Assembly (NCBI GenBank): GCA_965369385.1
Contig: CBDUQP010000001.1
Location: 4,628-68,627, forward strand
DNA from: an uncultured Phycisphaerales bacterium
GTDB taxonomy: Bacteria > Planctomycetota > Phycisphaerae > SM23-33
Length of the DNA: 64,000 bases
Reading direction: 5' to 3'
In this document: one piece after another, positions 893 to 61,142 of the stretch
How positions within the stretch are numbered: position 1 is the first letter of the stretch
Layout of the letters: each line of letters begins with the position of its first letter
The notes under the pieces: generated by a model
Told to the model about the DNA's origin: nothing
What the model saw: only the letters and a program-made list of their open reading frames with translations
Databases searched by the model: none
Made by a program: the position numbers and the translations under genes

Positions 893-1390
893 ATGCAATG
901 CAAATACTGCCCACACTGCGGAACCCCAACTTCGCTCAGAGATGTTGGCGATGAAGGCGAGATTCCTTGGTGCCCCGGCTGCGACACGCCACTTTTCGAC
1001 TCCCCATACCCCTGCGTGCTGGCTGTTACACTGGACGAGCAGAACAGAACTGCTGTGCTGATGCAGCATTACATCACCAAAGACCACTGGGTTCTGCCGG
1101 CAGGATACATCAAATCCGGCCACACCGCCGAGGAGACACTGTCCAAAGAGTTGATGGAAGAAACCGGACTCAGCGTTATATCATCTGAATATATAGACAG
1201 TTACCATCTGGAACACAAAGATGTGCTGATCTTCGGCTTTTTTGCCCGGGTGGCTGGCGAGCTGCAAACGAATTCACCGGAAGTGGATGATCTCAAGTGG
1301 GCCAGCTTCGAGGAAGTCGGCGGCCTGCTGAGACCAGGCGGCATAGGCCACTCATTGTATCTAACTGCCAAACAACGTTTTAGACTCTAG
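893..1390 (+). CDS. NUDIX hydrolase with N-terminal C4 zinc ribbon (NudC-like architecture)
   Basis: CxxC...CxxC pairs at the N-terminus (CPHCG...CPGCD). Nudix box GHTAEETLSKELMEETGL fits GX5EX7[RK]EXXEEXG. Confidence 0.8.
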   Translation: MQCKYCPHCGTPTSLRDVGDEGEIPWCPGCDTPLFDSPYPCVLAVTLDEQNRTAVLMQHYITKDHWVLPAGYIKSGHTAEETLSKELMEETGLSVISSEYIDSYHLEHKDVLIFGFFARVAGELQTNSPEVDDLKWASFEEVGGLLRPGGIGHSLYLTAKQRFRL

Positions 1391-24191: not shown

Positions 24192-26162
24192 CTATATCCG
24201 AATCTTCGCATTATACACCAACCATTCCACACACACCACCGCCAGCACCACCATCACGAACCATGGCCAGAGCTCAACATTGCTGGCGACGACCGGGCTT
24301 TCCTGCAAAGTCACTTCCCTGCCGGAAAGCAGCATTTTGTCGGCCGGCGATATGTCACTCTCGTCCCTGTCAAGCAAGTTCACCGCAAAAGCTTCTTCGG
24401 GCCGATCATCAATGCCGGCACGATAAATTCCCACTCGAGACGTGTTGGCATACCGCACCGCTCCGCCATCACTGCGTATCTCATCGAACGCCCCGTCAGG
24501 CCGGCTGATCTTCACCTTGCTTCCGTCAGGCAGACCCTCGATGGAAAATGCCTGCAACACTTCCAGGTTCACTCGATCTCCCGCACCGGAATCCTGCAAC
24601 AGGTAACTCAGCGAGTTGTAGCAGAACATCACGAAACCGGGCTCGAACGGCCAGTTGGTATCCATGGGATTAAACGATGCGATAACAAACACACTGCCCG
24701 ACCTTCGCACCACGGCCATTGCGGGCGTATCGTTGAACTCCGCAAGTATCTCCGCATCGCGAGGCAAATCCATCTTCCGGCATTTTGCGGCAAACACGTT
24801 TGCCATGCCCACCGCCTGCAACACGGGATGGCGGTTTCGCCAATCGACGATCGCCTGGCTCTTGAGCTCGTCACCCATCGTCACGCCTATGCCCGGTGGT
24901 GCAGCGCCGAAAACGATATACTTGCAACGCGGCAATGACGCCGGAACGTAGCCGTCAATAACCACCACATCGTATGACGTCTCCACCTGTCCGCTGTCAC
25001 CGCTCATGGCGTCGAACTCAGCCGGTGTCTTAACGTCGAGCAGTTTCACAGGGCATGCCTTCAACGCCAACTCCAGTGCTATATTGCCCGTGGTCACCAG
25101 CAGCACTCGCATCTTCTTGGCCGGCTGCAATACCGCCCAGGCCGCGTTGTCTGCCTTCAGGGCGTCGTCGCAGACCGCCCTCACCTCAATAATGCCCTGG
25201 CCCTCGTGGGAGAGCGTGAAAGTTACCGACATGCTGCCGGCCTGGCTGTTCTTCCCTCGCTTGCCAGTCCGTGGTTTCAGCGTCAATTGCCTCACTGCCT
25301 TGGCCTTGCCATCGACGCTGAGCTGCACGTCGCAAGTTACCGACTTGTCGCCATAATTCGCAAGCTCCGCGAAAACGGACACTTCAGACGCCTTCTCGTA
25401 AGAACGCCGCGCCTGCATGGAGACCACCGCAACGTTATCGTTGCGATTGCCGATTCGATGGAAGATAAGCTCCCCCTCAGCAAGTGCTATCTCGTCAAGA
25501 TCACTTATGCGACCATCGCTGAACAGCTCCAGCTTCGCCGGCGGGCGGCCTGTCTGGGCGGCAGTCGTGTTCGATGTAGCTCCCGAAAACGCGGTGGCTA
25601 CGACTATCGCTTCAGAAAGTGCACTCTTGCCGTCAGATTGCTCTATGGAGTCTATCGCCGCCAGGAGCCTGGCCTTGTCGGAAGTAAAATTGCATAAAAC
25701 CTTCGCGCCATTATCAAAGGCAACGATCATCGCTTCATCACTATAATCACGAAGCCATTGTGTCTGGCTTCGTAGCGATTCAACCAGCACCCGGGACTGT
25801 AGCTTGGCGATGTCAAGACGAGTTTCGCCGTCTTCCATCGTGCTCATGCTGCACGAACGATCTATCAAAATCACGTATCGCTTGGCCTGGCCGGCGTTCA
25901 TACTAAGCACCGGCCGACCAAGGGCGACCAGTATCGCCGCCAATGCCAGCAACTGAAGTAGCAGCAGTATGCTCTTGCGGATTCGCTGCAACGGCGCGTT
26001 GACCCGCAAATCCTGCACCGCCCGCTTCCACAGGAACGTGCTGGATACCTCCATTTCCTTACGCTTGAGCTTGAGGAAATACAGCAGCACCAGCAGAGGC
26101 ACTGCCACCCCGGCTGCTATCAACGCTGTTCTTGCTGCCATCCATCCCATATCAAACTCCAA
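24192..26162 (-). CDS. BatA-like VWA-domain protein (N-terminal double-TM 'aerotolerance' domain, VWA, C-terminal TM)
   Basis: N-terminus ALIAAGVAVPLLVLLYFLKLKRK then a second TM (BatA_N pattern). VWA MIDAS DRSCSMS. C-terminal TM WPWFVMVVLAVVCVEWLVY. Confidence 0.75.
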   Translation of the reverse strand: MEFDMGWMAARTALIAAGVAVPLLVLLYFLKLKRKEMEVSSTFLWKRAVQDLRVNAPLQRIRKSILLLLQLLALAAILVALGRPVLSMNAGQAKRYVILIDRSCSMSTMEDGETRLDIAKLQSRVLVESLRSQTQWLRDYSDEAMIVAFDNGAKVLCNFTSDKARLLAAIDSIEQSDGKSALSEAIVVATAFSGATSNTTAAQTGRPPAKLELFSDGRISDLDEIALAEGELIFHRIGNRNDNVAVVSMQARRSYEKASEVSVFAELANYGDKSVTCDVQLSVDGKAKAVRQLTLKPRTGKRGKNSQAGSMSVTFTLSHEGQGIIEVRAVCDDALKADNAAWAVLQPAKKMRVLLVTTGNIALELALKACPVKLLDVKTPAEFDAMSGDSGQVETSYDVVVIDGYVPASLPRCKYIVFGAAPPGIGVTMGDELKSQAIVDWRNRHPVLQAVGMANVFAAKCRKMDLPRDAEILAEFNDTPAMAVVRRSGSVFVIASFNPMDTNWPFEPGFVMFCYNSLSYLLQDSGAGDRVNLEVLQAFSIEGLPDGSKVKISRPDGAFDEIRSDGGAVRYANTSRVGIYRAGIDDRPEEAFAVNLLDRDESDISPADKMLLSGREVTLQESPVVASNVELWPWFVMVVLAVVCVEWLVYNAKIRI

Positions 26163-26199
26163 ATCCGCTTAATGCTCTCATCGCAAGTCGCAATAAATG

Positions 26200-27111
26200 C
26201 TACTTGAGCAATCCCGTTCTTCGCAGGTAGGTGAGCACGAGCTTTTCCACTGAATCGCCCGAGTTAATCAATCCGTAAATCGCACCGCGCTTCTTGCAGA
26301 ACTCCTTAATCTCATTGCAGTACGCGGTGAGCGCCTTGTTGTAGTAGTTCAACAACGCCCGACTCATTGTCACTTCCGAAACATCCACGTCCTCAACGTC
26401 AACGAGCTTCACATCTCCGGTGAGCTCCGGCGATAGTTCCTGCGGGCTCAACAACTGAAACGCATACAAGTCGGAATTGCACCCGATAAGACGCCTCAAT
26501 CCATCGTCAAAACCTTCCTTCAGCAGAAAGTCCGATATCACCACCACCACGCCGCGAGAATCATTGCCGCCCGCCAGTTCCCTGCAACTCCTGCTGAAAT
26601 TCGATACGCCTTCGGCGCGAGTGCTTATCAACATTTCCGCCATCTGAGGCAGGTAGCGGCGGCCTCGCATGTTCGCAACGCGTCCGACAATACCGTCGGC
26701 GAACGCACTAATACTCACACGATTATTGTTCGCAAGCGAAACATACGCCAAAGCCGCCGCCATTTGCTTGGCGAATATCTCCTTCGACGGCTCGCCCAGA
26801 GACATCGACCCGCTAACGTCTATCGCTATGTGAACCGTCAAGTCCTGCTCTTCGAGGAACAGCTTCAGGAAGAACTGCTCAAGGCGGCCGTAGATATTCC
26901 AATCCACCAGACGAAGATCGTCGCCGACCACATACGGGCGATGATCGGCAAACTCCACGCTCTGCCCGCGACGCTTGCTGCGGCGCTCGCCCTGCAACTT
27001 GCCCTGGAGAATCTTGCGGCTCATGACGTCCAGCGCATCCAAGCGTGTCATGAAGTCCGGACTAAGAAACTCCTTCAGCTTGCCGGCAGATGTTCTCGCG
27101 AGTGTGGTCAT
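26200..27111 (-). CDS. DUF58 domain protein (VWA-like, MoxR partner)
   Basis: Conserved DUF58 segment EFADHRPYVVGDDLRLVDWNIYGRLEQFFLKLFLEE, then a VWA-like DVSGSM. Overlaps the MoxR gene by 4 nt. Confidence 0.85.
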   Translation of the reverse strand: MTTLARTSAGKLKEFLSPDFMTRLDALDVMSRKILQGKLQGERRSKRRGQSVEFADHRPYVVGDDLRLVDWNIYGRLEQFFLKLFLEEQDLTVHIAIDVSGSMSLGEPSKEIFAKQMAAALAYVSLANNNRVSISAFADGIVGRVANMRGRRYLPQMAEMLISTRAEGVSNFSRSCRELAGGNDSRGVVVVISDFLLKEGFDDGLRRLIGCNSDLYAFQLLSPQELSPELTGDVKLVDVEDVDVSEVTMSRALLNYYNKALTAYCNEIKEFCKKRGAIYGLINSGDSVEKLVLTYLRRTGLLK

Positions 27112-28133
27112 GATGCCTCAACGGTTCTGTCGGTAATCTGCGAGGTCTTCTCGAGTATGTCACTCAGCACTTCATCGTTCGATATGCCCTCGGCCTGCCC
27201 TTCGAAGTTCAGTATCACTCTGTGCCGCATAGCCGGCAGGTATGCCTTGGCGATGTCGTCATAGCTCACGTGATACCGCTCATCCAGCATCGCCAGCACC
27301 TTCGCCGCCAGCACAATAGACTGCACCCCGCGAGGCGAGCCCCCGAACCGCAGATATCTGTTAGTGATATCCTGCGCAAATTCGCCGCCGGGATGTGTCG
27401 CCAGCACCAGGCGGATCGCGTAGTCCTGCACATGCGATGCAATTGCCACCTGCTGCACGAGCTGCTGAGCAGCGATAATCTGCTCGCCCGCGACAACTGC
27501 TTCGGCGGTCGGATTGTGCCCAGCCGTCGTGCGGTCCAGAATCTCCCGCAACTCGTCACGCCCGCTGTAGGGGATAATCAACTTGAAGAAGAATCTGTCG
27601 AGCTGGGCTTCCGGCAGCGGGTACGTGCCTTCCTGTTCAATGGGGTTCTGCGTAGCCAGCACACAGAAAGGCTCGGACAACTTGTAAACCACGCCACCAC
27701 TGGTCACCGAGTGTTCCTGCATCGCCTCAAGCATCGCCGATTGCGTCTTCGGCGTGGCACGGTTAATCTCGTCGGCAAGTATGATCTGACCGAATATGGG
27801 ACCATGCTGAAACTCGAACTCGCGACGGCCGGTTTGCCGGTCTTCCATGACCACGTTGGTACCTATGATATCCGCAGGCATGAGGTCAGGCGTGAACTGT
27901 ATGCGGCGAAACTTCAGCGACAGCGCCGAGCTGAGCGTGCGAACGAGAAGTGTCTTGCCCAAACCGGGCACCCCCTCCAGCAGCACGTTTCCACCGCAGA
28001 ACAGGCAGACCAGTACATCCCTGACAATGTCATCGTGCCCAACTATCACCTTGCCGATCTCGGCGCGGAGCGAATCAAACATCTGCCGGAACTCGCGGCA
28101 TTGAGATTCCACGTTATGTGTTTCTTGTGACAT
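27108..28133 (-). CDS. MoxR-family AAA+ ATPase
   Basis: Walker A GVPGLGKT, Walker B ILADEINRATPKTQSAMLEAMQE, and the typical MoxR C-terminal lid. Confidence 0.9.
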   Translation of the reverse strand: MSQETHNVESQCREFRQMFDSLRAEIGKVIVGHDDIVRDVLVCLFCGGNVLLEGVPGLGKTLLVRTLSSALSLKFRRIQFTPDLMPADIIGTNVVMEDRQTGRREFEFQHGPIFGQIILADEINRATPKTQSAMLEAMQEHSVTSGGVVYKLSEPFCVLATQNPIEQEGTYPLPEAQLDRFFFKLIIPYSGRDELREILDRTTAGHNPTAEAVVAGEQIIAAQQLVQQVAIASHVQDYAIRLVLATHPGGEFAQDITNRYLRFGGSPRGVQSIVLAAKVLAMLDERYHVSYDDIAKAYLPAMRHRVILNFEGQAEGISNDEVLSDILEKTSQITDRTVEAS

Positions 28134-28134
28134 G

Positions 28135-31100
28135 CTATTTATCTCCTGTATTGCCCTTGGGGCCCTTCAGCCGCCCTGCCGACTTGCGCTTTGTCCGCAG
28201 GAGTTGCTGCAAATAAGGGGCTTCGTTCTGGCTGTTCTTGTCTTCTTTTTCTTTTTGCGGCGATGTTTTCGGTGGGGTCTGTTTGGCAGTTCGCGTCACG
28301 TCGACAGTCTCAAGCTCATCCTGCTCGGTGCCGTCGGGCGTTTCAAAACGCGCTGCCCCTTGGGCGTCCATGGTATCTCTGACCGCACTTCGGCGCCTCT
28401 GCAATGCACTGAGTGTGCTGTCGGCCTGAACTGCTCGGCGGCGGAAACTGAGCAAGCCCGCGACGCCCCGGTACATGGCGCGAATATCTATTGAAACCCG
28501 TCTGATGGCTACGTCCAGCAGGAACAGGACTATCCACACGATAATCAGCGGCATGGTGATTTCGCGAGAATCCTCAAACACGCCAAGTTTCTCGCGCGAG
28601 AACAAGTCCGCCTGCTCCGGATCGCCGGTCAATACACGTCCGCCGGTCATTCTCGCTACCTGCGAAAGCAATGCGGCGTTGTCTGTCAGATCGCGAAACT
28701 CGGCTGCGTATGGAATGGTTACCGCGCACAGGGCCGACTTTGTCTTGCTGCCCGCCCCGAGCTTTCTGTACTTGACGTTCAGCAAATAGCTGCCCGGTGC
28801 CCGGGTTCTGAAGGCTGCACGATACGCGCCTGGTCCCACCTGCGAGATGCCCAGCTTCCGCGTTGCCATATTCGGGCCCGTGACCTCGGCTGAGATGGCT
28901 GCGAACTGGACGAACTTCCCTTCTGCATCAACGGCTTCGACACCGACATCAACACTTCCGCCGTGGATATCGGTGAATATCTCGCAATCACGCGAACCGG
29001 TGGACCTGCTAGTCCACTGCACCACCTGCTCCCAGAACCCACTAAAGCCACCCCACCCGACCCATTGCTCGGCCCACCTGCCATCGGCGGTGCTCATAAA
29101 TGCCACGCTGCGTCCCAGACCGGCCTGGCAGGTAGCCATTATCGGATCGTTATCGGGCCCACGTAACACCACGTTTGCGAAACCCCCCTTGTCGCCGGTG
29201 AGCATGTATCCATCGAGTCTCGGAAGGGAAGTTATGCCCTTGATTATTTCACTACCGCCTGAAACGATCGTCGGCGTGAATGTCTTCTCAACTATCAGCG
29301 ACCGCCGCACGACACGCGCTTCTTTCACGAATATCTGCGGAAGGCTGGCCGCATTCTTCACATTGTAGAACCTGCCGCCGGTTGCCCTGGCGATTTTCTT
29401 CAGGCTGAAAACATCATTAGGCGAATGTGGGAACACAGCCACGCCCGTGCAGGTAATGCCCGCCGACTTGAACTTCTTCAGCAACGCAGGGCTCGGCGGG
29501 CTGGGGTCGCCATCGCTTATGATAATCATATGCTTCTGGACCGCGCCGCATGTCTGTAACTTCTTCAGGACTGTCGTCATCGGTGCGGCAAAGTCCGGCA
29601 TGTCGCCCATGTTCATGGTGTTGATGGCATTGTTGACAGCCTTCTTGTCGCCCGCTTCCGAAAGCGGATGCACCCACGTTCCGCCATCCGGACCGCCGTA
29701 AAACGCAGCCACTCCAACCAGATCTTTACGACTCAGTGCATTGACAGCCGCCTTGGCAACCTGCCTGCCCCAATAATTGCCCCGGGGCATCTCGCAAGCG
29801 TGCATCAGCAGCACCAATGCCCCTTTGGGCATCTCCTTCTTGTGAGGAGGATCCATATCAACCGGCAGTATCCGCGCAGTGGGCGAACCAATCCATCCGC
29901 CCGCACCGTAGGAATTCGGGCCACCGATCATCAACAATCCGCCCGCTGTATCCTCCACGTACTTGCACAACAATTCCTGCTGGGCATAAGTGAACGATCC
30001 ACTGTCGGCGTCGATCAACACCACTGCGTCAACACCCATCATGGCAGCGAGATTATCGGGAAACTCGCCATACGTCTTCTGCCTCACCTGCATGCCCGCC
30101 TCGGAAAGAACATGCGTAAATTCTTCCGATGCCTTATTGTCGCCCACTATCAGGACATGCCCCTTTCCCGAAACCATCGTTATGGCTGCGGCCCGGTTGT
30201 TGCGGGATATCCCATCAGCGGCCGAATCGTCACAAATGAAGTGTGCCTCGTACTCGTACACTCCACGCGAACCAGCCGGCAGGACGACAGTCTTCACGTT
30301 AGTGCCCGGCTTGAGCGTTACCTTCATACCAAGGCCGGCTTCATCGTCCGGCGACAGATCAACAGGCCGCCCGTTCAGCATAAGCTGCAACTGCCCTGTC
30401 GCATGTGAGGTGCTGTTCAACACGAAACGAAGCGGGATGCTCTGTCCGTTGAGCGCCTGCGACGGCGCCGCCAGGCGAGTGAAAACCACCTCCCGTTTGT
30501 GATCGTACCGGAGCGGCAGAACATCTATCGGGATTCCATTGGACGCCGCAATACGCGCCACAGCCGTCAGGTCGCCATCGGTCTCGTTACCGTCGCTTAT
30601 CAGCAGCAGGCGGGTGGCAGTGTCCGGAGGCGCTATCGCCATCGCCATCTGCACGCCATCAGCAAGCCGGCTCTGATGCCCCAGAGCGGATATGCTGCGT
30701 CTGCGGAACTCAGGGTTCGGGCTGGGCAGTTTGGATATCTCCACATGCTCGGCTACATCAACAATTGCCAGCCGATCATTCGGGCGTTTGCCCTCAACAG
30801 CCTTCGCAAGGAAATCCACACCATAACTTTCCAACGTTGCAGGCGCACCATTCTTTGTCTTCGCTCCGGTGCCGACTGCAATGCCCGATACCGAAAGGCT
30901 GCGATCTACCACCGCGACAACTGTAACATCCTCACTTCGCTGCCCGATCATTGGCCTGGCAAGCAGAACCGCCAGCAACACTATTACCGCCACGCGCATA
31001 ACTATCGCCATCATCCGACGAACAATGCCGATTCCCTTCTGGCAGCGCAGAGCGATCACAACTGCCGGCACCGACAGTAAGCCCGTCAGCAGCCACCATG

Positions 31101-31143
31101 GCTGACCAAAATAGAGACTACTCGCTGCGATCATGGTTTCCAT
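28135..31143 (-). CDS. Large membrane protein: BatA-like N-terminal double TM, two VWA domains and a GATase1-like domain
   Basis: N-terminal TMs (WWLLTGLLSVPAVVIAL; VAVIVLLAVLLARP). VWA MIDAS VVDRSLSVSG. GATase1-like AMMGVDAVVLIDADSGSFTYAQQELLCKYVEDTAGGLLMIGG. Second VWA IIISDGDPS. C-terminal TM plus a basic tail. Confidence 0.7.
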   Translation of the reverse strand: METMIAASSLYFGQPWWLLTGLLSVPAVVIALRCQKGIGIVRRMMAIVMRVAVIVLLAVLLARPMIGQRSEDVTVVAVVDRSLSVSGIAVGTGAKTKNGAPATLESYGVDFLAKAVEGKRPNDRLAIVDVAEHVEISKLPSPNPEFRRRSISALGHQSRLADGVQMAMAIAPPDTATRLLLISDGNETDGDLTAVARIAASNGIPIDVLPLRYDHKREVVFTRLAAPSQALNGQSIPLRFVLNSTSHATGQLQLMLNGRPVDLSPDDEAGLGMKVTLKPGTNVKTVVLPAGSRGVYEYEAHFICDDSAADGISRNNRAAAITMVSGKGHVLIVGDNKASEEFTHVLSEAGMQVRQKTYGEFPDNLAAMMGVDAVVLIDADSGSFTYAQQELLCKYVEDTAGGLLMIGGPNSYGAGGWIGSPTARILPVDMDPPHKKEMPKGALVLLMHACEMPRGNYWGRQVAKAAVNALSRKDLVGVAAFYGGPDGGTWVHPLSEAGDKKAVNNAINTMNMGDMPDFAAPMTTVLKKLQTCGAVQKHMIIISDGDPSPPSPALLKKFKSAGITCTGVAVFPHSPNDVFSLKKIARATGGRFYNVKNAASLPQIFVKEARVVRRSLIVEKTFTPTIVSGGSEIIKGITSLPRLDGYMLTGDKGGFANVVLRGPDNDPIMATCQAGLGRSVAFMSTADGRWAEQWVGWGGFSGFWEQVVQWTSRSTGSRDCEIFTDIHGGSVDVGVEAVDAEGKFVQFAAISAEVTGPNMATRKLGISQVGPGAYRAAFRTRAPGSYLLNVKYRKLGAGSKTKSALCAVTIPYAAEFRDLTDNAALLSQVARMTGGRVLTGDPEQADLFSREKLGVFEDSREITMPLIIVWIVLFLLDVAIRRVSIDIRAMYRGVAGLLSFRRRAVQADSTLSALQRRRSAVRDTMDAQGAARFETPDGTEQDELETVDVTRTAKQTPPKTSPQKEKEDKNSQNEAPYLQQLLRTKRKSAGRLKGPKGNTGDK

Positions 31144-40944: not shown

Positions 40945-41018
40945 GGTGGCTATAGCTCAGTTGGTAGAGCACCGCGTTGTGGTCGCGGGGGTCGCGGGTT
41001 CAAGCCCCGTTAGCCACC
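40945..41018 (+). tRNA. tRNA-His (anticodon GUG)
   Basis: Cloverleaf read by eye. G-1 plus acceptor GUGGCUA/UAGCCAC, discriminator C. D-arm GCUC-AGUUGGUA-GAGC. Anticodon stem CCGCG/CGCGG with loop UUGUGGU. T-arm GCGGG-UUCAAGC-CCCGU. No encoded CCA. Confidence 0.85.
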
Positions 41019-41023
41019 CTGAA

Positions 41024-42037: not shown

Positions 42038-44269
42038 TTACACCTGCGAGTGGAAGGTCCTGGAAATTACTTCTTCCTGCTGCTCGCGGTTGAGCTTGTG
42101 GAAGTTCACCGCGTATCCGGAAACGCGAATCGTCAAATTAGGATACTTCTCCGGATTCGCCATCGCGTCGACCAGTAACTCGCGGTCGACAACGTTGATA
42201 TTCACGTGATGCCCGCCCTGGGCAAAGTATCCGTCAAGCACACCTACCAAATTTCCGCGCTGCTCGGGCAGTGCCTTGCCGAGCGTCGCCGGCGTAATAC
42301 TGAACGTACATGATATCCCGTCACGGCATGCATCGTAGGGTATCTTGGCGACCGAATTCAGCGACGCCAGCACACCGTGGCAGTCTCGCCCGTGCATGGG
42401 GTTGGCGCCGGGTGCAAAAGGCTGACCGTATTTCCTACCGTCCGGCGTTGAACCAGTCTTCTTTCCGTAAACCACGTTCGAAGTAATCGTAAGTATCGAA
42501 AGCGTGTGCTCGGCGTTTCGATAGGCGGGCGTCTTCTTTAACGATGCAAGGAAGTCTTCAACAAGAGTCGCAGCGATAAGGTCAACGTCGTCCTCATCGT
42601 TACCGAACGTCGGAAACTCGCCTGCGATTTCGAATTCCTTCACCAGTCCCGATTCGTCCTTCACGGGCATGACACTGGCATATTTGATCGCGCTGAACGA
42701 ATCGGCCACCACCGAAAGCCCCGCGATTCCAAACGCCATGAACCTGTCAACCTGCGTATCGTGCAGGCCCATCTCCAGCTTCTCGTAGGCGTAACGGTCG
42801 TGCATGAAGTGGATGATATTCATCGCGTTGACATACACCTTGCACAGCCAGTCGCGATAGAAATCAAACCGCCTCGACACTTCATCATAATCCAGCGGGC
42901 CATCGCCAATAGGCTCCATCTGGGGGCCGATTTGCTGACCAGTCAACTCGTCCCTACCGCCATTTATCGCCATCAGCAGTGTCTTGGGCAGATTACATCT
43001 CGCGCCGAAGAACTGCATCTGCTTACCGAGAGTCATCGCAGATACGCAGCACGCTATACCGTAATCGTCGCCATACACCGGCCTCATCAAATCGTCATTC
43101 TCGTACTGGATGGACGCGGTATCGATAGACACCTTCGCACAGTAACTCTTGAACGCATCGCTGAGGCGTTCGGACCAGAGCACGGTCAGATTCGGTTCCG
43201 GGTTGGGCCCGAGGTTATATAGCGTGTGAAGCATTCGGAAGGATGTCCTGGTAACGAGCGGCCGCGAGTCTTCGCCCATCCCGCCTACCGACTCGGTAAT
43301 CCACGTGGGGTCACCTGCGAAAAGTTCGTTATATTCCGGCGTGCGAAGCTGGCGAGCCATTCGCAGCTTCATCACGAAATCGTCGATGATTTCCTGCACG
43401 CCGGATTCATCAAGCGTGCCCTCAGCGAGATCTCGCTGAAAGAAAATATCCAGGAACGTGCTGACCCGCCCGAGCGACATCGCGGCCCCGTTCTGTTCCT
43501 TGATCGCACCGAGATAGGCAAAGTACACCCACTGCACAGCCTCGCGTGCATTGCGGGCAGGTGCGGAAATATCGATACCGTAAATCTCGGCCATCTGATT
43601 AAGCATTCGCAGGAAGTTAAGCTGCTTTGTGATCTCTTCCAGCAGGCGAATGTTCTCTTCGGACATATCCTGTAGGCCAAGTTCGGCGTGATCGTTCTCT
43701 TTGCACTCAATAATGCGATCTACGCCGTAGAGGGCAACTCGGCGGTAGTCACCGATAATTCGGCCTCGTCCGTAGGAATCGGGCAGGCCGGTTATCACGC
43801 CGGATTTGCGGGCCCGCCTTATCTCCTCGGTGTAAGCCCGGAAGACGCCGTCGTTGTGTGTGCTTCGATAGGCGAAGATGCCCTCGATCTTATCGTCAAC
43901 CTTGTAGCCGTATGCCTCGCACGCCCTGCGGGCCAGCCGCATCCCGCCAAATGGGTTGAGACTGCGTTTGAGGGGGCTATCGGTCTGGAGGCCGACAATT
44001 ATCTCGCGATCCTTGTCAAGATACCCCGGTTCGTAGGTGAGCAGTGACGATATGTGCTCGGTGTCTATAGACAGCACACCGCCACGCTCACGTTCGAGCT
44101 GCTCAAGGGCGGCGAGTTTGCCCATGAGCCCTCGCGTGCGGTCGGTGGGACCGGCGAGGAAAGACTCATCGCCATCGTAAGGTGTGTAGTTGTTCTGGAT
44201 GAAGTCGCGAACGTCAATCTGACGCTGCCACGTTCCATCGACAAAGTTTCGCCAGGCATCGTTTACCAT
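42038..44269 (-). CDS. pflB: Formate C-acetyltransferase (pyruvate formate-lyase)
   Basis: Glycyl-radical motif RVSGYAV near the C-terminus. Active-site region with adjacent cysteines (GIACCVSA). The N-terminus [42 protein letters not shown] aligns with E. coli PflB residues 1-50. Start moved from 44353 to ATG 44269. Confidence 0.9.
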
Positions 44270-44487
44270 TGCTGAATCTCCAAAATATGGGGAAATTGGA
44301 AAACTCACTGCAACAGCCGCCCGGAAATGAAAAACGCCCGGACATACCATCACATGCCCAGGCGGTCGGCAAAACTCTCTAATTACCTCGATCCCTTGTG
44401 GTTATGCCCACAATAAATCCGCCAGTCTCAAGGTAAGCTTTGTTCGTACTGTATTATAGGCACCCCCGCAGCAGCGTTCAAGACCCA

Positions 44488-55786: not shown

Positions 55787-56614
55787 TCAGGATTTCGCTT
55801 GCGGCTTTGGCCTGTCGGCGGGTTTCCCTCGCCACAAGGCATACGCAACCATCGCAACGCCTGCCACAAACGGGACTATCGACAGATACTGCCCCATAGT
55901 CAGCCCGTGTAGGGCTTTCAGGTCATCCACATGGTAATCCTTGACGAATTCCACACAGAACCGACCGGCGAAGTAAACGGCCATGAACGTACCAACCATA
56001 ATCCCCATCGGGCGTTTTTCTTTGCCGGCGAGGCGATCTACCGCAATCAAAACAAGCAACACGCAGATCCCCATCGCGAATTCATAAAGCTGCGACGGAT
56101 GCAGCGGCGTGTTTGGCGCGGCTTGCCAGTGCTTGAAAATGACCGCCCAGGGCACATCAGTTGGGCGTCCCACGACTTCAGAGTTCAGGAAATTCCCCAG
56201 ACGAATGCCCGCAGCCCCCACCGCAGCCGACATGGCGAAGCGATCCATCAATTCGAGAACGCGAATCTTGTGCCTGATGGCATAGAACGTAGCTGCCAGC
56301 AGCAAACCGATAGTTGCGCCATGGCTGGCCAATCCACCCTCCCATACGCGCAGAACACTTATCGGATCGGCCAGATATCTTGCAGGATGATAGAAGAAAC
56401 AATGCCCGAGCCTGGCACCGATAATCACGGCCAGCACCCCCCACATCAAGAATCCGTCGGTGACCTCATGGGAGTGCCCCCCGCGAAGCATTTGGCGGCG
56501 CCACAACACAAACGCAGTCAACAGAGTAGCTGCGAATACCAAACCGTAGTAGCGAATCTGGAACGGCCCCAGATTCACCAGAACCGGCTCCAGATCGAAA
56601 ACAAGAGCACCCAT
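55787..56614 (-). CDS. lgt: Prolipoprotein diacylglyceryl transferase
   Basis: Lgt signature GGLASHGA and GRLGNFLNSEVVGRPTDVPWAVIF. Start moved to ATG 56614 (MGALVFDLEPVLVNLGPFQIRYYG) by alignment with the E. coli Lgt N-terminus. Confidence 0.85.
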   Translation of the reverse strand: MGALVFDLEPVLVNLGPFQIRYYGLVFAATLLTAFVLWRRQMLRGGHSHEVTDGFLMWGVLAVIIGARLGHCFFYHPARYLADPISVLRVWEGGLASHGATIGLLLAATFYAIRHKIRVLELMDRFAMSAAVGAAGIRLGNFLNSEVVGRPTDVPWAVIFKHWQAAPNTPLHPSQLYEFAMGICVLLVLIAVDRLAGKEKRPMGIMVGTFMAVYFAGRFCVEFVKDYHVDDLKALHGLTMGQYLSIVPFVAGVAMVAYALWRGKPADRPKPQAKS

Positions 56615-57008
56615 ATATCTTTCCTTCACCTCTTCAACAACGATTCGGCGATGCTGCAGGGCGTCACAAACTGCCCTCGCATCGTCCGGAATCACAAAGC
56701 AAGTCAGCCATTATCGCCAGAGCGAATCGAATTACCAGTATTGCGTATGCCCGCACACAGAGCAGGTGAGCCCCGATGTGCATCGGGATCTTCGACGCCG
56801 GAGGCGGGCAGGTGAAACAACAAGGGCGAACAATCACCTGCGAGACTGATTTCAAATAGGCTCGCTCACCTGCGGTCTCCTGGCCACATGTCCAGCGAAA
56901 GATGCGATGTAATTTCGCTCCTGATCAACTCGTTTTATTACGTTTTGAGCACAAAACGGGGGAAATAGCTGAATAATCGTAACTTCAGAAGAATATGCCA
57001 TATTTGGG

Positions 57009-57037
57009 TTGCCTCGTAGCCTTCACCCCTATATATT
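57009..57037 (+). promoter_or_regulatory. Putative sigma70-type promoter driving the riboswitch-nrdDG transcript
   Basis: TTGCCT -35 and TATATT -10 with a 17-nt spacer, about 30 nt upstream of the riboswitch P1. Confidence 0.45.
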
Positions 57038-57064
57038 GTATGTGTTGCTGGTGTCCTGAGTGAT

Positions 57065-57295
57065 CAGGATGGCAAGAGGGAACCCGGTGAGAGTCCGGGA
57101 CTGCCCCGCAGCGGTAATCGGGAACGAACCCCGCGTTCGAGCACTTTCCGGGATTTTTCGCCAGTTGTTCTGAGGCTTGCTGAATGTTCAGCAGTAGTCA
57201 GGCCCTTGGCGATCCGGATGGGAAGCGGCGGGAAGTAGACGCGACGATGATGTCGCACGCCCGAGAGTCCGAAGACCTGCCAGCGACCTGTGCAA
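57065..57295 (+). promoter_or_regulatory. Cobalamin (B12) riboswitch in the nrdD leader
   Basis: Core AGGGAACCCGGUGAGAGUCCGGGACUGCCCCGCAGCGGUAA matches the conserved cobalamin-riboswitch core (E. coli btuB: AGGGAAUCCGGUGCGAAUCCGGAGCUGACGCGCAGCGGUAA). Downstream GGGAAG...GAGAGUCCGAAGACCUGCCAGCG matches the B12 box (btuB: GCCCGAAGACCUGCCGGCC). P1 pairs UGGCA near 57070 with UGCCA near 57287. Confidence 0.8.
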
Positions 57296-57692
57296 ACGCA
57301 CGGTTATCGACCCGAGCCTCCGAGGGGAGACGGGTTGAAGCGAAAAGGCACTACGCAGTGGCGACGAGACGATAGGTACAAGAAAGTCTGGACCTGAAGT
57401 TGCAGTTAGACGACAGGTACACGGAAATTCTGATCTAAAACGTCCCAGGCCGCACCTGTATGGCTTTTCACTTCTACCGACCCCTTTGGCAGGGTTCGCA
57501 GGCAACCGTGATAGTTTTTTGATGGTTGTCCGCCGCTTGAGGGGCGGAGGTTGAATCAGCGTTCGGCAGCACTGGCGACGGATGCCGGCTGCGGGATGTA
57601 CCCTCATTTCGTTGTTTGAAATTGTTTCAGTGTCGCCGGTCAAATGTTTTTTCGTGTCTTCGCATTTGTGCGCAGCATGAGACGTACTCAAG

Positions 57693-59801
57693 GTGAAAGG
57701 AATCGCCAGGATGATCGAATCGATTCGTAAGCGTGATGGAAGAGTTGTCCCATTCGAACCGGAACAGATCACTCGCGCGATCTACAAAGCTGCCGAATCC
57801 TGTGGCGGTAGTGACTACGACAAAGCCGAACAGCTCGCCAGGCAAGTTGCAGACCTGCTGTCCACCAAGCATCCGACCGATATGCCGGAAGTCGAAGAAG
57901 TTCAAGACGCCGTCGAAAAAATCCTCATCAAGAGTGGCCACGCACGCACCGCAAAGGCGTTCATTCTCTATCGCGAGAAACGCAAGAGCGCCCGTCACCA
58001 CAACGCACTGATCGGCGCCACGATCAACATGTTCTCCGACTACCTTGATGATCGTGACTGGAAGACGAAAGAAAACGCCAACCAGCAGAAGTCGATCAAC
58101 GGGCTGAACAACTACGTCCGCGAGTTCTTCACCAAAAATTACTGGCTGCACGAGGTGTTCCCCGAAGAGGTCCGCAGGGCTCACCAGTCCGGCCGCCTGC
58201 ACATTCACGATCTCGGCTTCCTCGGTCCATATTGTGCCGGATGGGATCTCAGGCAACTGCTGATGCTCGGTTTCGGTGGCGTTCCGGGCAAGGTGGAATC
58301 CAAGCCCGCCAAGCATCTGCGGTCTTTCCTGGGGCAGATCGTGAATTCCACTTTCACCACTCAGGGCGAGTGCGCCGGAGCCCAGGCATGGAGCAGTTTT
58401 GATACATACTGCGCCCCGTTCATCAGACGCGACAACATGGACTACGAACAGGTGAAGCAGTGCCTGCAAGAGTTCGTCTTCAATATCAACGTACCCACGC
58501 GAGTCGGCTTCCAATGCCCATTCTCGAATCTCACGTTCGACCTTACCGTACCGTCCACTCTAAAAGACCAGGCCGTGATCAATGGCGGCCAGATCATCGA
58601 CGCAAAATACGGTGACTTCCAGGAAGAGATGGATATCTTTAATCGCGCGTTCTGCGATACGATGATGGAAGGTGACGCCAAGGGGCGAGTGTTTACCTTC
58701 CCGATCCCCACGATCAATATAACCAAGGATTTCGACTGGAATTCGCCGGCGTTTGAGTCGTTCATGCAGATCACCGCAAAGTACGGCGTGCCCTACTTCG
58801 CAAACTACGTGAACTCAGACCTGTCGCCCGAAGATGCAGTCTCCATGTGCTGCCGCCTGCGTATAGACACCAGCGTACTCCGCAAACGCGGCGGCGGGCT
58901 TTTCGGCAGCAACCCGCTTACCGGTTCTGTCGGCGTGGTAACGGTGAACCTGCCGCGAATCGGCTACAAGGCCACCACCGAAACCGAGTTCCGCGAGATG
59001 CTCGCCAACGAAATCCGCATCGCCCGCGATTCGCTGGAAATCAAACGCAAGCTGATCGAGAAACAGACCGAAGCCGGCCTGTATCCATATTCCGCACACT
59101 TCCTGCAGACAGTCAAACAACGCACGGGCGCATACTGGCATAATCACTTCAGCACAATCGGCATTGTCGGCATGAACGAAGCCCTGCTGAACTTCATGGG
59201 CGTTGGCATCGCAGAAGAAAAGGGCAGTCAATTCGCTATTGAGCTGATGAACTTCATGCGAGACCAACTGCAACGCATACAGGAAGATACCGGGCACGTC
59301 TATAATCTGGAAGCCACTCCCGCAGAGGGAACTGCACACCGCCTCGCGCGGCTTGATCTGGAGCACTACCCGGACATCATCACTGCCGGCGACGACACGC
59401 CCTACTACACCAACTCCACACAGTTACCCGTGGGCCAGACAGACGACATCTTCGAAGCGGTCGAACTACAAGATGAACTGCAATCGCTCTACACCGGCGG
59501 AACCGTGCTGCATCTTTACCTCGGCGAAGCGATAGAGGATCCACAACTGTGCAAACGGCTGATCAGAAAAATATTCGCAAACAACAAACTGCCCTATATC
59601 TCGATCACGCCCACGTTCAGCATCTGCCACGATCACGGGTATATCAGCGGAGAGTTTTTCGCCTGCCCACAGTGCGATAAGGCCACAGAGGTCTACTCCA
59701 GAGTCACCGGTTACCTGCGGCCGGTACAAAACTACAACGATGGCAAACGCGCCGAGTATTTCGACCGCCGCAAGTACACCATGCCGGAGGTGATGGCATG
59801 A
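57693..59801 (+). CDS. nrdD: Anaerobic ribonucleoside-triphosphate reductase (class III)
   Basis: N-terminal ATP-cone (IRKRDGRVVPFEPEQITRAIYKAAE). C-terminal Zn ribbon CPQCD plus earlier Cys. Glycyl-radical motif SRVTGYLRP. The AGGTGA RBS sits 6 nt before the third ATG (57711), so the start may be 57711; 702 aa from the track start. Confidence 0.9.
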   Translation: MKGIARMIESIRKRDGRVVPFEPEQITRAIYKAAESCGGSDYDKAEQLARQVADLLSTKHPTDMPEVEEVQDAVEKILIKSGHARTAKAFILYREKRKSARHHNALIGATINMFSDYLDDRDWKTKENANQQKSINGLNNYVREFFTKNYWLHEVFPEEVRRAHQSGRLHIHDLGFLGPYCAGWDLRQLLMLGFGGVPGKVESKPAKHLRSFLGQIVNSTFTTQGECAGAQAWSSFDTYCAPFIRRDNMDYEQVKQCLQEFVFNINVPTRVGFQCPFSNLTFDLTVPSTLKDQAVINGGQIIDAKYGDFQEEMDIFNRAFCDTMMEGDAKGRVFTFPIPTINITKDFDWNSPAFESFMQITAKYGVPYFANYVNSDLSPEDAVSMCCRLRIDTSVLRKRGGGLFGSNPLTGSVGVVTVNLPRIGYKATTETEFREMLANEIRIARDSLEIKRKLIEKQTEAGLYPYSAHFLQTVKQRTGAYWHNHFSTIGIVGMNEALLNFMGVGIAEEKGSQFAIELMNFMRDQLQRIQEDTGHVYNLEATPAEGTAHRLARLDLEHYPDIITAGDDTPYYTNSTQLPVGQTDDIFEAVELQDELQSLYTGGTVLHLYLGEAIEDPQLCKRLIRKIFANNKLPYISITPTFSICHDHGYISGEFFACPQCDKATEVYSRVTGYLRPVQNYNDGKRAEYFDRRKYTMPEVMA

Positions 59802-60562
59802 AGTTCTCCGGATTGCAAAAATGCAGCTTCGTGGACTTCCCCGGAAAGATCGCTGCCGTGATCTTCACACAGGGATGCAACTTCAACTGCACCTACTGCC
59901 ACAATCGCTGCACTATAGACAATAGCAGCGAGAGCCTGCTCGATGGAATGGAAGTGCTGGCGTTCCTGGCCAAACGACGGGGCATGCTGGATGGCGTCGT
60001 GATTTCCGGCGGCGAACCGACACTGCAAACAGGGCTGACAGATTTTATCCGCACCGTTAGACTCATGGGCTTCGCAGTAAAACTCGACACCAACGGCAGC
60101 CGGCCGCGAGTTCTTGAGAGCCTGCTTGACGCCAAGCTGCTGGACTTCGTGGCGATGGACGTTAAGGCCCCCATGCACACGTATGAACAGATAACCAGAC
60201 GCCCGACAGACATGGCCGCCATTCGCCAGAGCATTGATTTGCTTCTCAGAGGCGATGTGGATTACGAGTTCCGCACCACGCTGGCACCGCAACTGTCCGC
60301 AGCCGACGTCCTGATGATAGCCACGCGAATCCACGGCGCAAAACGCTACGCAATCCAGCAATACCGTCCGGTTGAAGATGCAGATGTCACGCTTAGCATA
60401 GATGACCTGAAGCCCCACAGTGATGAATACGTGCTTGGCGTGGCGGACCTGGTGCGCCCGATGGTATCAACGTTCGAAGTTCGCGGCGTATCGCAAGCGG
60501 CACGCAAGGCGGCCGAGTTCGCACCAGTCACAGGCATCCTGCAAGAAGCTGTCTCAGCGTAA
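59798..60562 (+). CDS. nrdG: Anaerobic ribonucleotide reductase activating protein (radical SAM)
   Basis: Cluster motif GCNFNCTYCHN, GVVISGGEPT. Overlaps the nrdD stop by 4 nt. Confidence 0.9.
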   Translation: MKFSGLQKCSFVDFPGKIAAVIFTQGCNFNCTYCHNRCTIDNSSESLLDGMEVLAFLAKRRGMLDGVVISGGEPTLQTGLTDFIRTVRLMGFAVKLDTNGSRPRVLESLLDAKLLDFVAMDVKAPMHTYEQITRRPTDMAAIRQSIDLLLRGDVDYEFRTTLAPQLSAADVLMIATRIHGAKRYAIQQYRPVEDADVTLSIDDLKPHSDEYVLGVADLVRPMVSTFEVRGVSQAARKAAEFAPVTGILQEAVSA

Positions 60563-60572
60563 GGTGATTTTG

Positions 60573-61142
60573 ATGATCTTTTCCGACGGGCAAATCATAG
60601 AAGCTTTGAAGTCAGGGCGCATCACGATAGACCCCGTCCCCTCGGCCGACCAGTTCGCACCATCAGCAGTGGACCTGCACGTAGGGGCCGAGTTCAAGCG
60701 ATGGAAGACCCCGCCTGCGGGCGTAACCCAGCACCTGCGATTGTCGGAAGTGAACATCCCGGACTACGCGGATATGGTAGAGGATATTGATCGTAACGAA
60801 GACGGCTCGGTGCTGATCAGGCCGGGCGAATTCGTACTGTCCCAGACCATGGAACGAGTGCACGTACCGCACGACAGCCAACTGGCTGCCCGCGTGGAGG
60901 GCCGAAGCAGTTTCGCCAGACTTGGCTTGGTAGTACACATGACAGCCCCCACCATTCACGCCGGTTTCGAGGGTAACATCGTGCTTGAAATGATGAACTT
61001 CGGGCCGTTCCCACTGGCGATGGACCCCAACCACACACGCATCTGCCAAATCATCTTCGAAGAACTCGGCGCCCCACCCTCATGCGCCATCGACACCCCC
61101 TTCCAAAACCAGTCCACCGTCCTGGGCAAGAAAAGCGATTAA
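60573..61142 (+). CDS. dcd: dCTP deaminase (housekeeping, trimeric dUTPase-fold)
   Basis: Conserved VEGRSSFARLGLVVH and C-terminal NFGPFPLAMDPNHTRICQIIF. Start moved to ATG 60573, which has AAGGTGA RBS; the track start at 60420 overlaps nrdG. Confidence 0.9.
   Translation: MIFSDGQIIEALKSGRITIDPVPSADQFAPSAVDLHVGAEFKRWKTPPAGVTQHLRLSEVNIPDYADMVEDIDRNEDGSVLIRPGEFVLSQTMERVHVPHDSQLAARVEGRSSFARLGLVVHMTAPTIHAGFEGNIVLEMMNFGPFPLAMDPNHTRICQIIFEELGAPPSCAIDTPFQNQSTVLGKKSD

Follow-up and report, generated by a model that had tools for sequence, protein, structure and literature searches.

How does a riboswitch act on a gene that lies more than 400 nt away from its aptamer, when neither a terminator nor masking of the ribosome-binding site is found between the two? 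This question about the signal route, which bears more widely on riboswitches in GC-rich bacteria that lack canonical terminators, is raised by the leader of an nrdD-nrdG-dcd operon in the 64-kb stretch of DNA analysed here (hereafter, the window). We consider it probable that the region is a composite regulatory leader in which two layers of control are combined (features in Table 1).

Table 1. Features of the nrdD-nrdG-dcd operon and of its leader, in window coordinates.
Feature	Position	Strand	Basis or remark
NrdR box 1 (ATGCCATATTTGGGTT)	56995..57010	.	all six conserved positions
Sigma-70-like promoter, TTGCCT-17-TATATT (predicted)	57009..57037	+	consensus scan
NrdR box 2 (CCCCTATATATTGTAT)	57026..57041	.	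all six conserved positions; 15-bp linker from box 1
Cobalamin riboswitch aptamer (RF00174)	57032..57298	+	cmscan, independent fold, covariation in ten nrdD-linked aptamers
P1 helix	57045..57052 / 57279..57286	+	
Conserved core (GGGAACCCGGUGAGAGUCC)	57078..57096	+	fits GGGAA..GGUG..A.UCC
L5 (CCCCG)	57104..57108	+	
Extended peripheral stem, with 64-nt insertion relative to the Rfam model (about 57152-57215)	57147..57218	+	cmscan alignment
B12 box (AGUCCGAAGACCUGCC)	57266..57281	+	identified as a B12 box
Small hairpin, CUGUGC-AAAC-GCACGG then UUAUC	57288..57303	+	MFE fold
P13-like two-tier hairpin, loop CGAGGGG (L13)	57307..57338	+	MFE folds
139-nt irregular hairpin	57337..57475	+	-49.3 kcal/mol, z = -4.64
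Candidate anti-P13 switching strand, complementary to P13	57477..57498	+	pairs with 57313-57333 in the unconstrained MFE
Probable nrdD Shine-Dalgarno (AAAGGA)	57697..57702	+	8 nt before the ATG
nrdD, class III anaerobic ribonucleoside-triphosphate reductase with N-terminal ATP-cone	57711..59801	+	Pfam and NCBIfam profiles
nrdG, radical-SAM activase	59798..60562	+	TIGR02495, 215 bits (cut-off 131); PF04055
dcd, dCTP deaminase, third gene of the operon	60573..61142	+	TIGR02274, 131.6 bits (cut-off 92.8); PF22769

The original prediction placed the riboswitch upstream of nrdD and nrdG, and profile searches bear out both genes, which lie directly 3' of it on the same strand. NrdD scores 1026 bits against NF006126 (cut-off 548), 557 bits against TIGR02487, 642 bits against PF13597 and 81 bits against PF03477 (the ATP-cone), and its translation carries a C-terminal RVTGY glycyl-radical motif along with CxxC-type cysteines. 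As the activase gene is adjacent (the nrdG start overlaps the nrdD stop by 4 nt), the equivalog score, the glycyl-radical motif and the neighbouring nrdG together identify a class III RNR operon. The ATG of dcd follows 10 nt past the nrdG stop, behind AAGGTGA, and the same nrdD-nrdG-dcd order is common to four related loci (L001, L003, L004, and L008). Like the NrdR operator, the P13-like hairpin and the 139-nt hairpin described below, dcd had been overlooked in the first reading of this DNA. Neither NrdJ nor any gene for B12 transport or synthesis is present among the 18 largest ORFs of the window.

A cmscan search covering all 4227 Rfam families confirms that the leader contains a cobalamin riboswitch: RF00174 matches 57032-57298 on the plus strand with 95.9 bits (E 1.2e-22; gathering score 31.5), and the alignment is non-truncated, extending over model positions 1-189 of 189. 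Between 56800 and 57800, no other meaningful Rfam match is found even at E <= 10, one chance match to a miRNA being the only other hit. The coordinates initially given for the element (57065-57295) designate the right region, but they omit the 5' strand of P1 (57045-57052) and the 5' half of P2. The core and the B12 box, which had been said to fit the consensus closely, are both found, with a degenerate GCCACUG-type motif (GCACUUU). Folding of 57038-57340 independently of Rfam recovers P1, P2, P4, and the insert stem in the MFE structure (z = -3.1, with 0 of 100 shuffles equally stable). When ten nrdD-linked aptamers were aligned with MAFFT, unguided, and passed to RNAalifold, helices P3, P4, P5, and P6 emerged along with the P6 extension, and 15 of the 30 pairs showed compensatory changes; P1 and P2 are missing from this result because MAFFT misaligns them, and both are paired in the cmscan alignment. 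Taken together, these three approaches recover the P1-P6 junction architecture that the original prediction required, with covariation support. The aptamer belongs to the classical type and carries a P6 extension, and its fold and sequence lead us to predict cobalamin binding. The 64-nt insertion belongs to a peripheral stem which folds to -32 kcal/mol and is not present in the aptamers of relatives, and a second insertion relative to the Rfam model (17 nt) lies 3' of it. We also considered that the aptamer insert or the spacer downstream might be a repeat or mobile element, but neither has a second copy within the window.

The second layer of control is a predicted one, at the promoter. NrdR boxes are defined by C4, A6, A8, T9, T11, and G13 in a 16-bp box (PMC13584703), and the promoter region of the operon holds two such 16-bp boxes separated by a 15-bp linker. 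This is the sole strict two-box pair in the 64 kb, while any pair was observed in only 1 of 200 random windows. Nowhere else in the window is the NrdR palindrome matched as well as by box 2 (score 19 of 22, unique), and box 1 (weighted score 15 of 22) differs from the complete palindrome at positions other than the conserved six. Both boxes overlap the -35 and -10 elements of the sole promoter-like site 5' of the aptamer, the -35 overlapping the end of box 1 and the linker, and the -10 forming the centre of box 2. This promoter, already proposed in the original prediction, is plausible in view of the NrdR overlap and of the layout in relatives (on reading their sequences, the -35/-10 arrangement resembles that of the window), but its consensus match alone is not above chance, as two matches were found in the region when 0.8 +/- 1.0 were expected. 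Transcription is predicted to start at about 57044. As the NrdR operator overlaps the promoter, the nrdDG operon is predicted to be under dual control, by NrdR at initiation and by B12 in the leader. If it behaves like NrdR in characterised systems, the repressor with bound dATP and ATP would prevent transcription from starting whenever deoxynucleotides are abundant. A tblastn search detected neither an nrdR gene nor a second ATP-cone protein in the window.

Related loci indicate that this arrangement recurs. A riboswitch is located directly 5' of nrdD in 11 of the 160 NrdD relatives, the 11 belonging to at least four phyla, and B12 elements upstream of nrdDG were published in 2003-2004 (PMC545781); the original description of such riboswitches as known but uncommon is fair, because the arrangement recurs in these 11 relatives from several phyla. 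Of these 11 loci, 10 have an NrdR box at a distance of 45-60 nt 5' of the GGGAA core of the aptamer, and so does the window. The genome loci numbered 80, and 20 of them contain a strict NrdR box pair, which is located upstream of nrdD in 19. No database entry carries the NrdD sequence of the window itself, and the closest NrdD proteins share 78% (genome scan) and 76% (metagenome scan) identity with it. Thus, several phyla share, in front of nrdD, a module of fixed geometry made up of the NrdR operator and the B12 aptamer. Its distance to the gene varies: in L113 and L116, just 49-78 nt separate the B12 box from the tblastn-inferred nrdD start.

In the window, 413 nt lie between the aptamer end (57298) and the nrdD ATG (57711), which agrees with the original estimate of a long spacer of about 400 nt and is approximately twice the length found in relatives. 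The original prediction suggested that this segment be folded in search of a sequestering helix or a terminator, and we found neither. It is structured, and its z-score is -2.75 on the plus strand versus -1.25 on the minus strand. Behind the small hairpin, the P13-like hairpin contains an SD-like GGGGAG (57324-57329) and a TTG at 57335, and four nucleotides of its loop (GGGG, 57324-57327) are complementary to the CCCCG of L5. These sequences do not covary because they are nearly invariant. Homologous hairpins in L002, L003, L069, and L152 have the loop CGCGGGA and an L5 of GCCCCGC, and P13 together with L13-L5 complementarity is kept in five high-GC leaders. The window L13 has an A where these four closest aptamer relatives have a C, so that the kissing loop would be shortened or shifted to four G-C pairs. 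Judging from this complementarity, an L5-L13 kissing loop may form.

Further downstream, the 139-nt hairpin is more stable than all 200 shuffled sequences and forms in the model whether or not P13 is locked. The segment that follows it is predicted to form with P13 the best duplex of the leader (-29 kcal/mol, within the top 0.2% of background 30-mers), a weakly significant result, since 10 of 100 leaders reach this energy after shuffling. For the distal spacer, blastn (word size 7) detected no homologue in the 160 related loci (best E = 0.58), which leaves nothing to compare for covariation. Homology of the spacer to the long, riboswitch-less leaders of L001 and L004 is unsupported. Nor does it appear to be protein-coding: a 194-aa ORF on the minus strand (57188-57772) has no Pfam match and a low GC3 (0.51), and the small plus-strand ORFs are not conserved.

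How might cobalamin binding then be felt by nrdD? The transcript would begin essentially at P1 of a full-length aptamer, with the P13-like hairpin coming next and, as precedent suggests, bound cobalamin would turn the B12-independent class III reductase off. Such a shut-off would be sensible provided that another part of the genome encodes a B12-dependent NrdJ. Without B12, P13 would be absorbed into an extended helix with 57477-57498, and this helix would stack on the 139-nt hairpin. Binding of B12 would make the kissing loop lock P13 locally, freeing a C-rich segment (~57470-57498), and this would lead to premature termination, most likely Rho-dependent, in the remaining ~200 nt; masking of the nrdD ribosome-binding site would play no part. 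In the model, the predicted unpaired fraction of 57470-57500 is 0.27 and increases to only 0.39 on locking of P13. There is a single C-rich, G-poor stretch (57427-57486, C/G 2.3), and because most of it forms the 3' arm of a stable structure, the 139-nt hairpin, it is a poor Rho loading site as drawn. Transmission through a P13/anti-P13 swap and premature termination is the weakest step of the proposed mechanism and we put it forward tentatively, as a best guess that is possible rather than probable.

It is rather unlikely, in our view, that the 373 nt between P13 and nrdD constitute a lineage-specific expression platform of a kind undescribed for cobalamin riboswitches, or else contain a second sensor. 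As a platform, the 139-nt hairpin would serve as a spacer or scaffold for the long-range P13/anti-P13 swap, which would control Rho-dependent or other non-canonical termination at a distance. As a second sensor, the segment would add a further input (oxygen or nucleotide status, for instance) to be integrated with those of B12 and NrdR on the operon.

Other routes fare less well than the helix swap. The SD-like sequence and the TTG in P13 are spaced by 5 nt and precede an existing ORF of 20 codons (57335-57397), so one could imagine uORF-mediated translational control as in Mycobacterium tuberculosis ppe2, whose riboswitch masks the SD of a uORF inside the L13 hairpin (PMC11260477). P13 would then mask GGGGAG and TTG, and B12 would block the uORF and lower nrdD expression via polarity or Rho. 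We regard this as very unlikely: the ORF is not conserved (2 codons in L003, 3 in L002, and absent in L069), its SD and TTG are also paired, within the extended helix, in the model of the apo state, and it stops 313 nt before nrdD, making termination-reinitiation coupling impossible. A conserved uORF of the ppe2 type, with its SD in the L13 hairpin and its stop abutting the main start, is thus not found in the window.

Constraint folding with P13 locked or free, under a thermodynamic model, revealed no B12-dependent masking of the nrdD ribosome site. The nrdD SD, 359 nt past P13, is located in a hairpin loop and is predicted to be unpaired with a value of 0.62 in both modelled states. A variant of this idea is suggested by the MFE structure of the leader, in which the segment between the small hairpin and P13 (57301-57308, CGGUUAUC) forms an 8-bp helix, two pairs of which are G-U, with the nrdD start region (57710-57717, GAUGAUCG), and this long-range masking could be modulated by B12. 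We give it slim chances, since six of the base pairs persist when P13 is locked and predicted accessibility of the AUG region barely changes between the modelled states (0.17 versus 0.22). Moreover, a complementary 8-mer allowing G-U pairs is expected by chance about this often (a rough estimate), and reading of the L002 and L003 sequences reveals no equivalent pairing.

No intrinsic terminator was found on the plus strand of 56700-57800. A second scan detected clear terminators in L002, L074, and L118 but, for the present leader, weak candidates only (-5 and -7 kcal/mol, 4 U in 8). In L002, the counterpart of the small hairpin (5157-5171, CCGCGC-CCA-GCGCGG then U6) scores as an intrinsic terminator, and in the window the 5' strand of this hairpin overlaps an outer P1 extension proposed by Rfam. 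The hairpin could accordingly be imagined to act as a weak terminator when B12 closes P1, plausibly as in L002. That this holds in the window seems scarcely credible, as its 6-bp stem, with a G-U and an A-U pair, is followed by UUAUC only and fails both scans; the U tract is also missing in L003, L069, and L152.

Finally, that the riboswitch is a relic or governs a separate short RNA, with nrdD served by a second promoter-like match inside the spacer (TTGGCA-18-GATAGT, 57486-57515), draws on the unusual length and poor conservation of the spacer but is the most improbable account, given that two promoter-like matches are within chance, that no NrdR box lies near the second one, that the aptamer scores as high as those of relatives with its B12 box intact, and that the order NrdR box, aptamer, nrdD is found in relatives, including the short-spacer loci L113 and L116.

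The locus would provide a clean and well-supported case of triple-layer control of deoxynucleotide supply in a poorly studied lineage, exerted by NrdR at the promoter, by the B12 riboswitch in the leader and by the ATP-cone on the enzyme. Based on literature precedent, it also leads to an annotation prediction, namely uptake or synthesis of cobamides by the organism, together with a B12-dependent alternative reductase.

Known systems offer parallels for both control layers and for their combination. In M. tuberculosis, the metE and ppe2 B12 riboswitches have leaders of 365 and 292 nt, and metE undergoes B12-dependent premature termination without a canonical intrinsic terminator, while the SD inside the ppe2 L13 hairpin belongs to a uORF and not to the main gene (Kipkorir et al. 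2024, PMC11260477). High GC content, a long leader and the lack of a canonical intrinsic terminator are likenesses with the window, and their L5-L13 kissing loop has a candidate counterpart there. The window leader is longer, however (about 670 nt from the predicted start, 413 nt of it past the aptamer), its 139-nt hairpin has no counterpart described for metE or ppe2 and, unlike the ppe2 uORF, its candidate uORF is unconserved and does not abut nrdD. At the DNA level, canonical NrdR operators consist of two 16-bp boxes with a 15-16 bp linker (PMC13584703, PMC9110341), and the window site is the same in its six positions per box, its 15-bp linker and its overlap with the promoter.

The association of a B12 riboswitch and an NrdR operator with RNR operons has been described since 2003-2006. 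Desulfovibrio vulgaris and Desulfuromonas have a B12 element in front of nrdDG (Rodionov et al. 2004, PMC545781, who cite a comparative analysis of B12 regulons from 2003), and B12 elements precede nrdDG in bacteria containing NrdJ, for which repression was proposed (PMC545781). The window shares with them a cobalamin riboswitch in a class III operon leader and the proposed logic of a B12 repression favouring NrdJ, but differs by its Planctomycetota/Phycisphaerae-like lineage (as indicated by NrdD and by synteny), by dcd as third gene and by its 413-nt spacer. The other precedent is the nrdABS operon of Streptomyces coelicolor, which is controlled by a B12 riboswitch (Borovok et al. 2006) and whose promoter region, with its NrdR boxes, is bound by NrdR (Grinberg et al. 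2006), both studies being cited in PMC13584703 and PMC12528414. As presented there, nrdABS encodes a class Ia enzyme (nrdAB) and its control was shown experimentally, whereas the window operon is of class III and its control is predicted; on the same account, both combine an NrdR operator with a leader riboswitch, and in both the B12-independent enzyme would be the one repressed in the presence of B12.

The whole window, compared with Rfam 15, contains a single match to the Cobalamin model (RF00174), located at 57032-57298 (+), which scores 95.9 bits (E = 1.2e-22; gathering score 31.5) and spans model positions 1-189 without truncation. The aptamer differs from the model by two insertions: one of 64 nt in a peripheral hairpin, which forms an extended, stable stem (-32 kcal/mol), and one of 17 nt further 3'. 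The MFE fold of 57038-57340 (z = -3.1, more stable than all of 100 shuffles) gives P1, P2, P4, and the insert stem. Similarly, with ten nrdD-associated aptamers aligned by MAFFT without further guidance, RNAalifold finds P3, P4, P5, P6, and a P6 extension, with compensatory double changes at 15 of 30 pairs. The riboswitch of the original prediction is thus upheld by a significant match to the full model and by a core that folds, both independently and in the comparative alignment. Its location was correct, but the limits then proposed (57065-57295) leave out the 5' strand of P1 (57045-57052) and half of P2. A permissive Rfam scan (E <= 10) of 56800-57800 returned nothing notable besides RF00174.

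Features of the nrdD leader and neighbouring genes
Feature	Position	Strand	Basis or remark
lgt (gene upstream)	55787-56695	opposite to nrdD
NrdR box 1, ATGCCATATTTGGGTT	56995-57010		6/6 conserved positions
Promoter-like match, TTGCCT-17-TATATT	57009-57037	+	consensus scan
NrdR box 2, CCCCTATATATTGTAT	57026-57041		6/6 conserved positions
P1	57045-57052 pairs 57279-57286	+	cmscan alignment
Aptamer conserved core, GGGAACCCGGUGAGAGUCC	57078-57096	+	cmscan alignment
L5 (CCCCG)	57104-57108	+	cmscan alignment
B12 box, AGUCCGAAGACCUGCC	57266-57281	+	cmscan alignment
Small hairpin, then UUAUC	57288-57303	+
P13-like two-tier hairpin	57307-57338	+	loop CGAGGGG, complementary to L5 CCCC
Irregular hairpin, 139 nt	57337-57475	+	-49.3 kcal/mol, z = -4.64
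Segment pairing with whole P13 sequence	57477-57498	+	unconstrained MFE; extends long hairpin
nrdD	ATG 57711 to 59801	+	PF13597 642 bits, N-terminal ATP-cone, NF006126, TIGR02487
nrdG	59798-60562	+	TIGR02495 215 bits (cut-off 131)
dcd (dCTP deaminase)	ATG 60573; gene to 61142	+	TIGR02274 131.6 bits (cut-off 92.8)

The downstream genes are nrdD and nrdG, as had been proposed: besides the PF13597 and TIGR02495 scores, NrdD reaches 1026 bits with NF006126 (cut-off 548) and 557 bits with TIGR02487, and its C-terminal region shows the RVTGY glycyl-radical motif. The start of nrdG overlaps the nrdD stop by 4 nt, and the dcd ATG follows the nrdG stop by 10 nt, with its own AAGGTGA in front. As dcd lies directly behind nrdG, the operon reads nrdD-nrdG-dcd, and conversion of dCTP to dUTP is predicted to fall under the same NrdR and B12 control. 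Upstream, lgt lies on the opposite strand, so that the 1015-nt intergenic region is divergent. Among 160 related loci, this gene order occurs only in four (L001, L003, L004, and L008), labelled Planctomycetaceae, Phycisphaerae, or Phycisphaerales; a fifth, L070, has a weak dcd match (31% identity). The window's NrdD has no exact match on record; the best NrdD identity among relatives is 78%, and gene order and NrdD identities together place the window, as far as sequence comparison goes, near this Planctomycetaceae/Phycisphaerae-labelled group.

NrdR sites are made up of two partly palindromic 16-bp boxes, 15-16 bp apart, in which C4, A6, A8, T9, T11, and G13 are highly conserved (PMC13584703). 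The two boxes found here are separated by a 15-bp linker, and box 2 is the window's single best match to the full palindrome. No other two-box pair exists in the 64 kb, and any such pair was seen in 1 of 200 first-order Markov random windows. The TTGCCT/TATATT promoter of the original prediction is within chance as a consensus match by itself (2 found versus 0.8 expected), but it becomes credible because it coincides with this operator (box 2 has the -10 at its centre, and the -35 straddles box 1 and the linker) and because relatives, whose sequences were read by eye, have a similar layout. Transcription would then start at about 57044, some 7 nt past the -10 and essentially at P1. The earlier interpretation, largely right, is therefore incomplete, having overlooked the NrdR operator. 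Within the window, neither an nrdR gene nor another ATP-cone protein was found.

The NrdD relatives comprise 80 loci from GTDB species genomes and 80 from JGI/ENA metagenomes. In at least 11 of them, RF00174 immediately precedes nrdD and shares its strand; this number is a minimum since a regex pre-screen may have passed over others. Six belong to the genome set (L002, L003, L030, L069, L073, and L074; labelled Phycisphaerae (two), Bacillota (two), Proteobacteria, and Bacteroidota) and five, without organism label, to the metagenome set (L094, L113, L116, L118, and L152). Alignment of the leader with these relatives reveals a conserved ACACTATATATTGTAT-like palindrome directly 5' of every aptamer. 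In the window and in 10 of the 11 relatives, the GGGAA core is preceded, 45-60 nt to its 5' side, by a NrdR box that keeps five or six of the conserved positions. Of these 11 leaders (the window and 10 relatives), 8 show another box about 31-32 nt farther upstream. The one departure is the near-identical L074/L094 sequence, with the distal box alone detected, at 83 nt. Operator and B12 aptamer thus form a composite module of fixed geometry. In L001 and L004, which are nearest to the window by NrdD (76-78% identity), a NrdR pair lies 340-400 nt upstream of nrdD and the riboswitch is missing; long leaders are thus a clade trait independent of the riboswitch. These two loci share a 103-nt leader block (L001 9806-9906, L004 9795-9892; 78.6% identity, E = 7e-12). 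Its fold comprises two conserved hairpins, Rfam offers no match to it, and the block, present in two sequences, may be an undescribed nrdD leader element. Some 9 kb upstream of its nrdD, L003 (Phycisphaerales) also has two Acido-Lenti-1 matches (RF01687, gathering score 37), one on each strand: 793-841 (-) (38.8 bits) and 950-998 (+) (39.1 bits).

From aptamer end to nrdD ATG, the spacer measures 413 nt, in agreement with the roughly 400 nt announced. The distance from B12 box to nrdD start is 439 nt, versus 49-335 nt in relatives, whose starts were inferred by tblastn. L069 and L152 have in-frame ATGs with a good SD (9947 and 1609) that precede the beginning of the tblastn matches by 54 and 78 nt; if these are the true starts, the distances become 217 and 257 nt. 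The NrdD of both loci probably has a short N-terminal extension, hence spacers shorter than raw match coordinates indicate. None of the 160 loci contains a homologue of the window's spacer (best E = 0.58), and within the window the spacer occurs once; a 194-aa minus-strand ORF across it has no Pfam match. Its plus strand is more structured than the complement (z = -2.75 versus -1.25), which points to an RNA-level feature. None of 200 shuffles is as stable as the 139-nt hairpin, and the last 240 nt are without significant structure (z = -1.09).

At the position of the small hairpin, between P1 and the P13 hairpin, L002 (Phycisphaerae) carries a homologous hairpin (5157-5171, CCGCGC-CCA-GCGCGG) followed by U6, a convincing canonical intrinsic terminator. 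The U tract is absent in the window, L003, L069, and L152, and the same leader position seems to be used differently in these close relatives. In the four aptamer-closest relatives, L5 reads GCCCCGC and L13 CGCGGGA, the expected kissing loop by complementarity; the pair is near-invariant, and thus without covariation. In L069, the 9-mer TGAAGGTCG occurs at about 9796-9804 (P13 3' strand) and again at about 9948-9956, across the candidate nrdD start (A-TGAAGGTCG, the in-frame ATG at 9947, read from sequence); seen by eye, the P13 5' strand could pair with either copy.

At the sequence level, then, the promoter carries a NrdR site, the predicted transcript has at its 5' end an aptamer that scores highly, and a P13-like hairpin follows whose loop could kiss L5. 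Judging from precedent, cobalamin binding would turn the nrdD operon off. The nrdABS operon of S. coelicolor is reportedly turned off by cobalamin, a result attributed to Borovok et al. in 2006. Repression by B12 has also been proposed where B12 elements precede nrdDG in bacteria that contain NrdJ (PMC545781). With dATP and ATP bound, NrdR acts as a repressor of initiation (PMC9110341, PMC13584703), and at the operator it would be expected to do so here.

How the aptamer acts on expression is less clear-cut. The sequestering helix or terminator sought in the spacer was not found: scans of the leader gave no intrinsic terminator, and the modelled accessibility of the nrdD SD and AUG region does not differ between free and locked P13 (0.62/0.62 and 0.17/0.22, respectively). 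A 20-codon uORF starting at TTG 57335, behind an SD-like GGGGAG in P13, resembles that of M. tuberculosis ppe2 (PMC11260477); it ends 313 nt before nrdD and is unconserved (two or three codons, or none, in relatives). As these three outputs are unsupported, a helix swap remains. Without B12, the P13 sequence would pair with 57477-57498; with B12, the kissing loop would keep P13 local and free a C-rich region (about 57470-57498), which could permit termination by Rho, a mechanism reported in other riboswitch leaders of high GC content. The C/G ratio reaches 2.3 at 57427-57486. The duplex (-29 kcal/mol) is the leader's best and ranks among the top 0.2% of background 30-mers; its energy is matched in 10 of 100 shuffled leaders. 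Locking P13 raises the modelled accessibility of the C-rich region by a small amount, from 0.27 to 0.39, and P13 pairs with a downstream segment in the MFE of four of five high-GC leaders (not L002), a result easily obtained in GC-rich RNA. We therefore put forward this modelled output step tentatively, its support being modest. It appears unlikely that the distal leader works as a second sensor or as a new expression platform acting at long range.

No RNR or B12 transport/synthesis gene was found among the 18 largest ORFs of the window; by analogy with precedent, NrdJ may be encoded elsewhere in the genome, as originally supposed. A ZMP/ZTP riboswitch (RF01750, 62.8 bits; 44349-44439 (-)) immediately precedes a gene for a glycyl-radical enzyme resembling pyruvate formate-lyase (42038-44353 (-); PF02901 663 bits, PF01228), the classic "pfl motif" arrangement. 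The window also carries feoB (16418-19018 (-)), a BatA/VWA aerotolerance-type cluster (24192-31143 (-)), and a single tRNA-His (GTG) gene (40946-41019 (+)). The pfl, nrdDG, feoB, and BatA/VWA genes suggest an anaerobic, facultative, or microaerophilic organism.

The arrangement itself was, as stated originally, already known, descriptions of B12 riboswitches in front of nrdDG dating from 2003-2004 (PMC545781). The predicted dual control by NrdR and a B12 riboswitch resembles that of S. coelicolor nrdABS, to judge from the titles of references 6 and 7 in PMC13584703. Long leaders are known as well: P. aeruginosa nrdAB has a 408-411-nt leader carrying NrdR sites (PMC12528414), and M. tuberculosis has long B12 leaders with premature termination and uORFs (PMC11260477). 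The part that such precedents leave unexplained is the distal leader of 373 nt, whose 139-nt hairpin is highly non-random.
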